IMG/VR virus record: IMGVR_UViG_3300047308_000027
Location: 1 to 25,722 of that record
Length of the DNA: 25,722 nt
Source: a virus
Lineage: Duplodnaviria > Caudoviricetes
Direction: 5' to 3' (one strand)
Positions 8,781-11,628 of the stretch are shown here, piece by piece; the stretch's first letter is position 1, and every line of letters starts with the position of its first letter. A model generated the notes under the pieces. It made no database searches and had not been told where the DNA came from. It worked only from the letters and a program-made list of their open reading frames with translations. A program made the position numbers and the translations under genes.

Positions 8781-8928
8781 ACCTGACGTATCTGGAGCGG
8801 AAGAAGTTAAAAACAAATACGCCCGTAAGCGTCTAATTGGTCCCCCTAAAACAAAGAACGTTATAGACACCATTGGACTGGGTAACCTAAAAGTAGAAAC
8901 AATGTATGGCAAACCAACTGACGTATGA
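8725..8928 (+). CDS. Small basic hypothetical protein between portal and scaffold
   Basis: 67-aa ORF that fills the gap and overlaps both neighbours. Confidence 0.55.
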   Translation: METHKPIRPPKSKLPQVSKPDVSGAEEVKNKYARKRLIGPPKTKNVIDTIGLGNLKVETMYGKPTDV

Positions 8929-9700
8929 TCCAACCGAATATGACGAACAGGAATTCTCTGAAGAAGAACTGGATTCGTTGAGGGTTGGTGAGGAACTTGT
9001 AGCAGAACAGGATGACCTGTTGGCTGGTAAGTACCGTGATGCACAGGAACTAGAGCAGGCGTACCTTGAGCTTCAACGTAAGCTTGGTGAACGCAACGCT
9101 GATGATCCTGAAGAATATCCTGAAGAGACCGATGATCAGGAAGAAGAGGAGTATGAAGTATCCCCTGGTGTCAACCTTATTCAAGAGGCTTCGGCGGAAT
9201 ACTATGAGAACGGTGGCCAACTTACTGAAGAGACTCTAGCCAGGTTTGGTGAGATGTCTAGTCAGGACTTAGTTGCTGCATACCTTGAGATTCAAGCAAA
9301 CGCACCACAACAAGAACAGTATGAAGCATCTCCTGATCTCACAGATAGGGAGGTCAACTTTATCCAAAACAGTGTTGGTGGTGAGCAAGCGTACTCCAAT
9401 CTCATTGGTTGGGCATCCGAGAATCTTAACCCCGAATATGTTCAGGCCTTCGATAACGTGGTGGAGTCTGGCAATGTTCAGGCTATCCAGCTTGCTGTCG
9501 CTGGTCTCAGGAGTGAGTATGAACAAGCTGTTGGATATGAAGGAAGGATGCTTTCAGGTAAAGCAGCAACTACTTCATACGACGCGTTCCGTTCTCAGGC
9601 TGAAGTGGTTCGAGCCATGAGTGATCCACGCTATGAGAATGATCCTGCATACCGTCAGGACATCTTTGACAAGCTAGATCGTTCTAATATCGAATTCTAA
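8906..9700 (+). CDS. gp9: Capsid assembly scaffolding protein
   Basis: Very acidic, with LLAGKY..A.ELE.AY.EL, VGGE..Y..L..WA and AMSDPRY..DPAYR motifs. Confidence 0.93.
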   Translation: MANQLTYDPTEYDEQEFSEEELDSLRVGEELVAEQDDLLAGKYRDAQELEQAYLELQRKLGERNADDPEEYPEETDDQEEEEYEVSPGVNLIQEASAEYYENGGQLTEETLARFGEMSSQDLVAAYLEIQANAPQQEQYEASPDLTDREVNFIQNSVGGEQAYSNLIGWASENLNPEYVQAFDNVVESGNVQAIQLAVAGLRSEYEQAVGYEGRMLSGKAATTSYDAFRSQAEVVRAMSDPRYENDPAYRQDIFDKLDRSNIEF

Positions 9701-9738: not shown

Positions 9739-9776
9739 GACGTGTGAGCCATATGAAAGTTCTTTGCAATTTTACT

Positions 9777-10073
9777 ATGCTACCTCTGCTAACTACTCTG
9801 TCCGTCATTAGTTCTTGGTACGGCCCTGGCTTTAATGGCCTACGTACTGCTAATGGTGAACGATTTAATCAACACGCTCTAACTGCAGCACACAAGACAC
9901 TACCGTTTGGAACACGACTTAAGGTTTGTTTCCAGCGATGTGCCGTGGTGCGTGTCAATGATCGAGGACCTTACATTCCTGGGAGGTCAATTGATCTCAG
10001 TAAAGGCGCGGCTGAAGCTATCGGTCTTGCTGGCTCTGGAGTTGGCCGAGTCAATATCACACGACTCAGTTAA
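9777..10073 (+). CDS. rlpA: RlpA-like double-psi beta-barrel lytic transglycosylase
   Basis: SWYGPGFNG..TANGERF....LTAAHKTLPFGT, VRVNDRGPY, R.IDLS..AA motifs. Likely start is ATG 9777; the track begins at 9744. Confidence 0.92.
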   Translation: MLPLLTTLSVISSWYGPGFNGLRTANGERFNQHALTAAHKTLPFGTRLKVCFQRCAVVRVNDRGPYIPGRSIDLSKGAAEAIGLAGSGVGRVNITRLS

Positions 10074-10090
10074 CATACACTTTTTTTATT

Positions 10091-10261
10091 ATGGCACACG
10101 AAGGTTTTAACCCGAAGACTTCTTCGGTAATTCCTCAGTATCTTGTTAAGACTACTGGTGATCGTTTCTTTATTCCTGCTTACCCTGATCCTCATGTGAA
10201 TGCAGGTGACCTGGCTTCATGTCAGTCACTGTCTCCTAAGGGTATTCAAAAGGTAGCTTGA
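10091..10261 (+). CDS. Small hypothetical protein, 56 aa (MAHEGFNPKTSS...KGIQKVA); not in the ORF track
   Basis: Read by hand. ATG follows a T-rich leader and codons are T-ending like those of other late genes. Confidence 0.65.
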   Translation: MAHEGFNPKTSSVIPQYLVKTTGDRFFIPAYPDPHVNAGDLASCQSLSPKGIQKVA

Positions 10262-10608
10262 TAACAGATTGGAGGCACCTCAGAGTAGGACCTCCTTTCT
10301 CTTGCCCGCGTCCGTGGCTTAGTAACGGTGAAACTGTAAACCCCTCCCAAAGGGTAACAGGTATGGATCTTTGTTTTACACCTTGCTGCTGTTAGCGCAG
10401 GGTTATCTGCCAACTTGGTCTTAAGTATGACGCTGGGCCCATAGCCCAGAAATGATGGTCCGATCCCATCAGTTGGTGTTGGCTTAGGCCCGCTAAGGCG
10501 GACACCCTTTGCCATTGACAGTTCGGAGAGACGAACACTTGATATTTTAACGCGCAAAATTTTCCAACGTTGGAGAGAAACTTTTAACCATTCTCTCTTT
10601 TACTTCCA
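10262..10608 (+). ncRNA. Highly structured non-coding region / capsid mRNA leader
   Basis: Tandem hairpins at 10271-10295, 10312-10328, 10334-10360, 10381-10402, 10480-10514, 10521-10536 and 10570-10609, plus the cloverleaf at 10409-10478. Confidence 0.65.
10409..10478 (+). tRNA. Atypical tRNA-Met(CAU)-like cloverleaf (initiator-like; possibly a pseudo-tRNA or tRNA mimic)
   Basis: Acceptor GCCAACT/AGTTGGT; D arm GTC-TTAAGTAT-GAC; anticodon arm CTGGG-CCCATAG-CCCAG with CAT at 10440-10442; variable AAAT; T arm GATGG-TCCGATC-CCATC. No CCA is encoded. Confidence 0.72.
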
Positions 10609-11628
10609 ATGGCCACTGCACCTAATGCAACCCAATCACCGCTTGGTGTAATTAATAAGGCGGTAGCTGATACCGACAAGTCCCGTGCTTATAATACTAA
10701 GTACGGCACCTATCTGAAACTGTTCAGTGGTGAATTGTTCAAGGCTTATGAAGCTGCTTGTATCGCTAAAGGCACGGTTCAGAACCGTACCCTGAAGAAC
10801 GGCAAGAGCCTTCAGTTTATCTTCACTGGTCGCATGACCGCTGATTACCATTCCGTGGGTACTCCTATCCTTGGTTCTGGTGATCCCCCGGTGGCAGAGA
10901 AGACCATCGTCTGTGACGACCTGCTGATCTCCAGCGCGTTTGTCTATGACCTTGATGAAACTCTGGCTCACTACAGCCTCCGCTCTGAGATTGCCGCCAA
11001 GATCGGCTACGCTCTGGCTGAAGCTTATGACAAAAAGATCTTCCGCACCATTGCCAAAGCTGCACGTGAGGCTCACCCCATCACTGCTGCTCCTGGTCCT
11101 GAGCCCGGCGGTTCGATCATCAAAGTTGGTGCTGGTAATGAGTACAACGCTCAAAGCATCGTTGATGCCTTCTTTGAAGCTGCTTCCATCCTTGATGAAA
11201 AGAACCTTCCTAAGACTGGCCGTACCGCTGTCCTCAGCCCTCGTCAGTACTACGCTCTGATCTCTCAAGTTGATACCAACATTCTCTACCGGGAATTTGG
11301 TAACACCCAAGGTTCTATGAACTCTGGCGAAGGTCTGATGCAGATTGCTGGCATCGACATCCGTCGTTCCAACAACCTCCCCTTCAAAGCTGGCACTGTT
11401 GCCGCTGTGTCTGGTGAGAACAATGACTACTCTGGTGACTTCTCCGCTCACTGCGGTTTGATCTACCAGAAAGATGCTGCTGGCGTTGTGGAAGCTATTG
11501 GTCCTCAAGTGCAAACCACCTCTGGTGATGTGTCTGTCCTGTACCAGGGCGACATCATCGTTGGTCGTCTTGCCATGGGCTGTGGCACCCTGAACCCTGC
11601 TGCTGCTATCGAACTGCAGGCAGTCTGA
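10609..11628 (+). CDS. gp10: Major capsid protein
   Basis: YLKLFSGE.F.A, RTLKNGKSLQFIFTG, EK.I..DDLLISS and LSPRQYYAL motifs, with strong codon bias. Confidence 0.97.
   Translation: MATAPNATQSPLGVINKAVADTDKSRAYNTKYGTYLKLFSGELFKAYEAACIAKGTVQNRTLKNGKSLQFIFTGRMTADYHSVGTPILGSGDPPVAEKTIVCDDLLISSAFVYDLDETLAHYSLRSEIAAKIGYALAEAYDKKIFRTIAKAAREAHPITAAPGPEPGGSIIKVGAGNEYNAQSIVDAFFEAASILDEKNLPKTGRTAVLSPRQYYALISQVDTNILYREFGNTQGSMNSGEGLMQIAGIDIRRSNNLPFKAGTVAAVSGENNDYSGDFSAHCGLIYQKDAAGVVEAIGPQVQTTSGDVSVLYQGDIIVGRLAMGCGTLNPAAAIELQAV

Follow-up and report, generated by a model that had tools for sequence, protein, structure and literature searches.

A tRNA-like cloverleaf upstream of a cyanopodovirus capsid gene as a candidate processing mark for the capsid mRNA

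What is a tRNA-like cloverleaf with a CAU anticodon doing 130 nt 5′ of the major capsid gene of a phage? The element lies in a virus record of 25.7 kb (hereafter the window, meaning the whole stretch of 25,722 nucleotides that was analysed), which is 57% complete, has a T7-like gene order and encodes portal, scaffold and major capsid proteins all backed by Pfam. The source is a T7-like cyanopodovirus and its host is presumably a picocyanobacterium. Feature coordinates are collected in Table 1.

The cloverleaf and the leader that follows it

Table 1. Features of the window around the cloverleaf, in 5′ to 3′ order.
Feature	Coordinates	Strand	Remarks
Scaffold (capsid assembly) gene	8906..9700	+	PF05396; upstream of capsid, same strand
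DPBB_1 ORF (lytic transglycolase-like)	9744..10073	+	Pfam; in the scaffold-capsid interval
56-aa ORF	10091..10261	+	Ends just 5′ of hairpin A; no Pfam match
Hairpin A	10266..10301	+	10+2 pairs, near-invariant 15-nt apical motif, one unpaired 3′ base; commonest slot occupant in relatives
Motif B	10302..10408	+	Conserved unannotated segment from hairpin A to cloverleaf; starts TTG like the leader; z −0.18, no established fold
tRNA-like cloverleaf	10409..10478	+	Trp-type phage tRNA body with CANAYAG-family anticodon arm (C33); from Rfam, fold, arm identity and orthologues
Acceptor stem	10409-10415/10471-10477		Includes the G1-U72 pair
D stem	10418-10420/10429-10431
Anticodon stem	10433-10437/10445-10449		Loop CCCATAG, CAT at 10440-10442
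T stem	10454-10458/10466-10470		T-loop TCCGATC
Discriminator	10478		G; CCA absent
Structured capsid leader	10479..10608	+	P1 10480-10483/10511-10514 around an internal loop and a variable hairpin; GAGAGA-loop hairpin 10521-10536
Perfect 12-nt palindrome in leader	10563..10574	+	34 nt 5′ of the ATG
Major capsid protein gene (T7 gp10A-like)	10609..11628	+	82% identity to S-CBP1/S-CBP3/S-SRP01 (Synechococcus podoviruses)

An earlier note, made from the sequence alone, had described the geometry and coordinates of the cloverleaf, its loop deviations and its 130-nt spacing to the capsid ATG at 10609. The sequence matches that description, and two results agree with it: an Rfam match to RF00005 covers precisely 10409-10478, with 44.5 bits (gathering threshold 29, E 1.3e-6), and the cloverleaf is the MFE fold at −26.7 kcal/mol (z −3.38; 1 of 200 shuffles equally good), persisting when the capsid leader is attached. 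ARAGORN, which the same note had proposed running, called 0 genes across the window and left the cloverleaf uncalled; the program under-calls such elements, with 3 calls in 60 of 80 capsid loci. The cloverleaf is the sole T-arm-plus-acceptor match in the window, where a mononucleotide shuffle would give 0.3 on average, and blastn against GenBank phages returned no homologue of the cloverleaf itself. A tRNA fragment of the attP type would have a 3′ half identical to a host tRNA and an integrase gene beside it; in this window, which is 57% complete, the element is whole, self-paired and 5′ of the capsid gene.

Functional bacterial tRNAs carry U33, a D-loop GG and a T-loop UUC; the cloverleaf has C33, no GG and UCC. 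The lack of CCA, previously listed among its departures from bacterial tRNAs, is true of this copy but equally true of the annotated tRNA-Gly that occupies the same place in NATL1A-7. Also as claimed, the capsid gene is SD-less, no SD-like word being found within 20 nt of its ATG.

The 130 nt that follow fold as a structured leader (z −3.21) to which no Rfam family matches. Of 63 distinct leaders, 58 parse alike, with a stem from base 2 or 3, an inner hairpin that shows heavy two-sided change, and a second hairpin. Most distinct leaders (65 of 70, as against 32 of 1400 shuffles) carry a perfect palindrome, 12-18 nt long, whose 3′ end lies about 30 nt from the capsid ATG; its core takes 11 different self-complementary forms, which suggests pairing between mRNA copies. 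The GAGAGA loop and a second GAGAG run can each pair with the CTCTCT tract directly 5′ of the capsid ATG (10521-10536 and 10575-10600), a possible switch.

Theta (HDV-like) ribozymes are structured RNAs found directly 3′ of a phage tRNA discriminator. The leader resembles them in being a structured RNA right after a discriminator, but has neither the HDV layout nor an Rfam ribozyme match: its parsed fold consists of two hairpins, and the nested double pseudoknot is absent by inspection. A ribozyme reading of either the leader or motif B was likewise rejected, Rfam giving no ribozyme support and only a sub-threshold abiF match at three distant loci. These loci, in more distant podoviruses (L422, L428 and L438), have the abiF RNA motif at 30.6-33.9 bits (gathering 37) beside tRNA-like elements.

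Occupants of the slot before the capsid leader

The position directly 5′ of the leader, here called the slot, was compared among relatives. The best 80 capsid loci were fetched and the leader start was anchored in 74, 6 being short of upstream DNA; 8 were duplicates. Adding the window and 8 isolates brought the set to 75 anchored loci and 64 distinct slot sequences. All 64 are occupied, 22 by T-arm elements and 42 by hairpin A: the occupants are tRNAs, decayed tRNAs, mini-tRNAs made of acceptor plus T arm, or 12-pair hairpins, and each ends one unpaired base (in a few cases two) 5′ of the leader.

The register was measured from loops and not from fold ends, because RNAfold in 80-nt windows blurred the latter (34 of 64 at one base and 18 at two, with terminal G-U and U-U pairs unscored). 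From the T-loop end to the leader there are 13 nt in 18 of the 22 T-arm elements and 14 in 2, and the 2 unparsed cases (L014, L017) give 13 in a separate parse; these 13 nt comprise the T stem, the acceptor strand and a single discriminator base. In 41 of 42 cases, hairpin A ends 11 nt past its motif. The discriminator of the 22 T-arm elements varies (A 10, T 6, G 5, C 1); U follows it, a base partly set by the choice of anchor.

The tRNA-Gly series loses the D and anticodon arms stepwise. A pattern search that imposes the T-arm and the leader returned 120 loci (78 distinct, part of them checked for a capsid gene), with forms ranging over whole tRNA-Gly, a collapsed D arm, anticodon loops of 5 to 8 nt and acceptor-plus-T-arm mini-tRNAs. 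The automatic arm parser misassigns some acceptors and gives spurious ORFs; overlaps with stop codons were taken from annotated cases only. Among these, P60 and S-CBP2 have the stop codon of the scaffold gene within the mini-tRNA, and S-TIP37 has that of the upstream ORF there.

A slot element is present in 17 of 17 cyanopodovirus isolates examined: a mini-tRNA in 10 (Syn5, P-SSP7, S-TIP37, S-CBP3, S-SBP1, P60, S-CBP2, S-CBP42, P-SSP2 and P-GSP1), hairpin A in 6 (S-SRP01, S-CBP4, S-B28, P-SSP10, S-RIP2 and DSL-LC07) and a tRNA-Gly in NATL1A-7 (GU071102, CYIG_01001), the sole annotated element among the 17. To judge from these sequences, the conserved feature is position, with D arm, anticodon and discriminator free. 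The leader can exist without the mark, because two roseophages, CRP-114 (L447) and CRP-125 (L448), keep its inner core, by eye, and show neither a T-loop element nor hairpin A (0 of 2).

The stem of hairpin A covaries, with two-sided changes at 9 of 12 pairs (0 of 500 shuffles), and U occupies the fifth position of its loop in 16 of 42. These two-sided stem changes, together with a lack of Syn5 promoter matches, led us to reject hairpin A as a phage promoter. Every non-T-arm slot element has the apical motif; in contrast, where hairpin A lies 5′ of tRNA-Gly-derived elements the motif is kept in 1 of 39 distinct segments, 35 being stem remnants and 3 unclassified. The 39 segments stand for fewer than 39 independent events, as ancestry is shared; the remnants nonetheless differ.

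The window itself retains an intact hairpin A, and motif B comes next in the same register; motif B opens the capsid leader in L420, L427 and L441. Each element thus precedes UUG and a conserved segment. Motif B has no Rfam match and recurs in 27 viral loci (L420-L446), mostly in the scaffold-capsid interval. Bracketed in the window by two predicted cut marks, it could leave as a small RNA, and a pseudoknot at its 5′ side is possible by eye.

Other features accompany the slot. ORFs resembling the 56-aa ORF sit 5′ of it in L001, L002 and L005, and a recurring two-hairpin motif with a CTGAAAT linker, unmatched in Rfam at gathering, lies directly 5′ of it in L014, L017, L033, L034, L063 and L074. 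Glutamine-II riboswitches (RF01704) occur in the scaffold-capsid interval of L018, L021, L043, L063 and L068, several of them 5′ of short DUF4278-like ORFs.

A predicted RNase Z cut and its alternatives

The cloverleaf folds, its 3′ register is fixed, and tRNAs, mini-tRNAs and hairpin A replace one another in its place. Because these occupants are interchangeable, the cloverleaf is likely a mark for a processing cut and not a methionine tRNA. A processing signal for RNase P or RNase Z in the late mRNA had been the second option of the earlier note, and the slot survey makes it the best reading: we lean, with some reserve, towards a tRNA-punctuation signal that gives the capsid mRNA a defined, hairpin-protected 5′ end. 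A cut by host RNase Z at 10478/10479 is suggested because the pattern of kept and free parts fits the rules of this enzyme, the stop-codon overlaps favour a 3′ cut and no Syn5-type promoter lies nearby.

In the mechanism we propose, the slot would be transcribed within a long late RNA, and host RNase Z would bind the acceptor-T-arm stack and cut after the unpaired discriminator, with a possible RNase P cut before 10409. The capsid mRNA would then begin with UUG, its first stem one or two bases from the 5′ end. A paired 5′ end affects mRNA decay, and here it would shield the capsid mRNA from 5′-dependent decay. The upstream RNA would retain a tRNA-like 3′ end, and capsid output would be uncoupled from the scaffold and psbA genes.

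The kept and free parts of the slot element match the RNase Z substrate rules given in passages of PMC7479834 and PMC3161902: the acceptor and T-arm stack is kept and the D and anticodon arms are dispensable, a single discriminator is unpaired, no C or CCA follows, and the distance to the predicted mature end is fixed, with the trailer base partly anchor-set. The parts of PMC7479834 that concern two archaeal RNase Zs report that these required a mature 5′ end, a need that fits badly because the mini-tRNAs sit embedded in the upstream gene. Synechocystis slr0050 is named as RNase Z in a passage of PMC3161902; TIGR02651 was matched in all 14 control genomes, S. elongatus included, and over the cut-off in 9, a count given without names. 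Near the capsid gene of Syn5, a Syn5-type promoter had 0 matches in 1601 nt at 3 mismatches, and none was found near the window capsid gene, where a single chance-level match lies far off. Hairpin A, two thirds of the occupants, has no canonical T-loop and is a putative RNase Z substrate; its near-invariant motif may bind something else. In the window copy, the lost D-loop GG and C55 may weaken the elbow.

Could RNase P be the selected cutter instead, cutting 5′ of the element, so that the tRNA-like shape stays on the capsid mRNA as a cap that protects it? We consider this unlikely. The acceptor-T-arm geometry would suit RNase P equally, the window has U at −1, and passages of PMC4919922 and PMC11143913 give mRNA and phage RNA substrates for the bacterial enzyme; but the register to the leader is held on the 3′ side and not on the 5′, CCA is absent after the element, and the 5′ strand of the element is within the annotated upstream gene in P60, S-CBP2 and S-TIP37. 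With the scaffold stop inside the mini-tRNA, as in P60 and S-CBP2, a 5′ cut by RNase P would clip an essential gene and a 3′ cut would not.

Similarly low odds go to an element that is left uncut and protects the upstream transcript at its 3′ end, pauses or weakly terminates it, or insulates the leader so that it can fold. U-rich runs do sometimes trail hairpin A, and the upstream stop codon is often overlapped. However, a passive hairpin requires no T-loop and no 12-pair length, the window has no U tract 3′ of the acceptor stem, and hairpin A, once a tRNA occupies the slot, mostly keeps its stem (35 of 39) yet loses its motif.

A broader form of the RNase Z reading we advance tentatively, at a little less than even chances: the capsid gene would have no phage promoter and T7-like cyanophages would punctuate their late RNA by tRNA mimics at which host RNase Z creates the capsid mRNA 5′ end. 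The mark would have been rebuilt repeatedly (from captured Gly, Trp and other tRNAs, from mini-tRNAs overlapping upstream genes and from a non-tRNA hairpin), and in this phage the CANAYAG loop of the excised piece would be a portable unit with a separate role.

Comparable systems are known. Phage T7 has host RNase III cut its polycistronic RNA into stable mRNAs; the predicted mark would likewise have a host RNase cut polycistronic RNA, but its signal is a tRNA-like shape and not a long RNase III hairpin. Another likeness is to the tRNA punctuation model of mitochondria. In plant and animal mitochondria, as set out in part of PMC4919922, t-elements and tRNAs act as a tRNA shape in a long transcript that marks the cut for mRNA ends, the anticodon being dispensable; here, by contrast, the setting is a bacteriophage with host enzymes, the site is a single fixed one 5′ of the capsid leader, and the cutting is predicted. 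The same source also covers the mascRNA and menRNA of MALAT1 and MEN-beta, non-decoding tRNA-like structures excised by RNase P and RNase Z; there the mature product is the 3′ end of the upstream lncRNA, whereas the predicted phage product is the 5′ end of the downstream mRNA. The tRNA-Gly of NATL1A-7 shares slot, register, leader and lack of CCA with the window copy, but is canonical and annotated as a plain tRNA gene, the window copy having a Trp-type body and non-canonical loops.

We found no account in the literature of the slot or of cyanophage tRNA punctuation; Lindell 2007 with its supplement, and Labrie 2013, may be relevant here, and the accessible part of PMC4646655 has no mention of 'tRNA'. 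If the RNase Z reading is true, mitochondrial-style tRNA punctuation extends to bacteriophage mRNA, in a very abundant marine and freshwater phage group; raised capsid output from a long late transcript is explained; lone tRNA genes 5′ of capsid genes, such as that of NATL1A-7, are cut marks and not codon supply; and slot elements provide minimal RNase Z substrates from nature. The predicted site is a single nucleotide in the cultured P-SSP7, Syn5 and S-TIP37, which makes the reading directly testable.

Ancestry of the cloverleaf and its anticodon loop

The nearest relative of the cloverleaf, in L083 (same as L223, L401 and L426), has 4 differences in 70 bases, none at a paired position (loops or discriminator), and carries A33, a canonical T-loop and U73. 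Locus L420 has the same cassette of hairpin A, motif B and cloverleaf as the window; its cloverleaf retains the D-loop GG and reads CCA. The closest homologues share the body of the cloverleaf, yet read CAU with A33, CCA (Trp), or nothing. Compared with the canonical tRNA-Trp that fills the L063 slot, the cloverleaf is identical at 7 of 7 D-stem and 15 of 17 T-arm positions, and compared with an actinobacterial tRNA-fMet (L267) at 10 of 10 positions in the anticodon stem, 3 of 14 in the acceptor and 3 of 7 in the D stem. Between the window copy and the Trp orthologue in L420, 7 of 9 bases at 31-39 differ, the pattern of an arm swap.

From these homologue and arm-by-arm comparisons, the window copy has a body of the tRNA-Trp type, in which a CANAYAG arm probably replaced the original anticodon arm; C33, G73 and CAU are unconserved. 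C33, G73 and the odd T-loop are changes private to this copy, and we infer that its CAU is not under decoding selection. Selection on shape, which had been proposed from the intact stems, gains weight here: across five related bodies, pairing holds in 99 of 100 pair cells, and 5 of the 20 pairs show two-sided changes (4 of 500 shuffles, for n=5 related sequences).

The anticodon stem of the cloverleaf is common in prokaryotes, with 133 matches at 125 loci in 1 of 64 parts of the genome collection; base 33 of these is U in 132, C in 1 and A in 0. With the loop left free in the query, CANAYAG was found in 13 of 22 distinct viral elements (29 loci), and 8 of the 9 others have U33. The anticodons of the 13 are AAU (5), CAU (3), GAU (3), AAC (1) and GAC (1). 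Five precede a capsid gene, five belong to a group between a ribonucleotide-reductase-like gene and a phosphoesterase (best named match S-CBS4), and three resemble L231, near a DUF4278-like ORF. The family appears to be a cyanophage loop grafted onto unrelated bodies; the loop varies too much for decoding yet is more uniform than plain drift would leave it, and its conservation is not explained by cleavage.

That the released 70-nt RNA acts through this loop, say by serving a host nuclease or tRNA-binding protein as ligand or decoy, with processing secondary, is nevertheless improbable as an account of the slot. In its favour are the sharing of the loop by 13 of 22 distinct elements, 8 of the 13 away from capsid genes, the lack of A33 in all 133 cellular matches, and the 7 differences in 9 bases from the Trp orthologue. 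Against it, the window copy departs from the consensus (C33), the flanking stem was imposed by the query, recent exchange among cyanophages could spread one arm without selection, and most phages of the group have no such loop.

A decaying passenger tRNA-Trp with no present function would account for the four loop or discriminator differences from L083 and for the loss of GG and U55; it is very improbable, since 20 of 20 pairs are intact, with two-sided changes, and decay across the group always spares the acceptor, the T arm and the register.

Bacterial tRNA-fMet has an unpaired 1-72 (C1), purine 11-pyrimidine 24 and A73. The cloverleaf shares with the actinobacterial type an identical anticodon stem with three G-C pairs and a centred CAU, but has no 1-72 mismatch (G1-U72), U11-A24, G73, C33, G38 and unrelated acceptor and D stems. 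The three G-C pairs, held up in the earlier note as an initiator hallmark, are indeed present here with CAU but vary among relatives, with U31-A39 in L420 and L063 and A29-U41 in L221, L215 and L216. An initiator-tRNA mimic (the headline of that note), whether a VapC-type decoy, a nuclease-resistant tRNA-fMet or a ribosome recruiter for the SD-less capsid gene, is hardly credible, as its CAU, G-C pairs, fMet-like anticodon stem and lack of SD are set against that dissimilar body, against orthologues that read CCA (Trp) in L420 or have A33, a canonical T-loop and U73 in L083, and against relatives whose leader has the same SD-less end but whose slot holds no anticodon arm, as is the case for most. 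In a comparison with prokaryotic tRNAs and viral relatives, a eukaryotic tRNAi-Met or mitochondrial tRNA-Met origin was rejected: the supposedly eukaryote-like stem is found in bacterial tRNA-fMet and in the 133 prokaryotic matches, and L083 has A33.

In S-CBS4 itself, two intergenic stretches that were folded held no CANAYAG element. S-CBS4-like phages (L220, L224, L255 and L263, at about 670-742) carry tRNA-like elements with the CANAYAG loop, the D arm being shrunken in several; these are possibly cut marks of the same kind.
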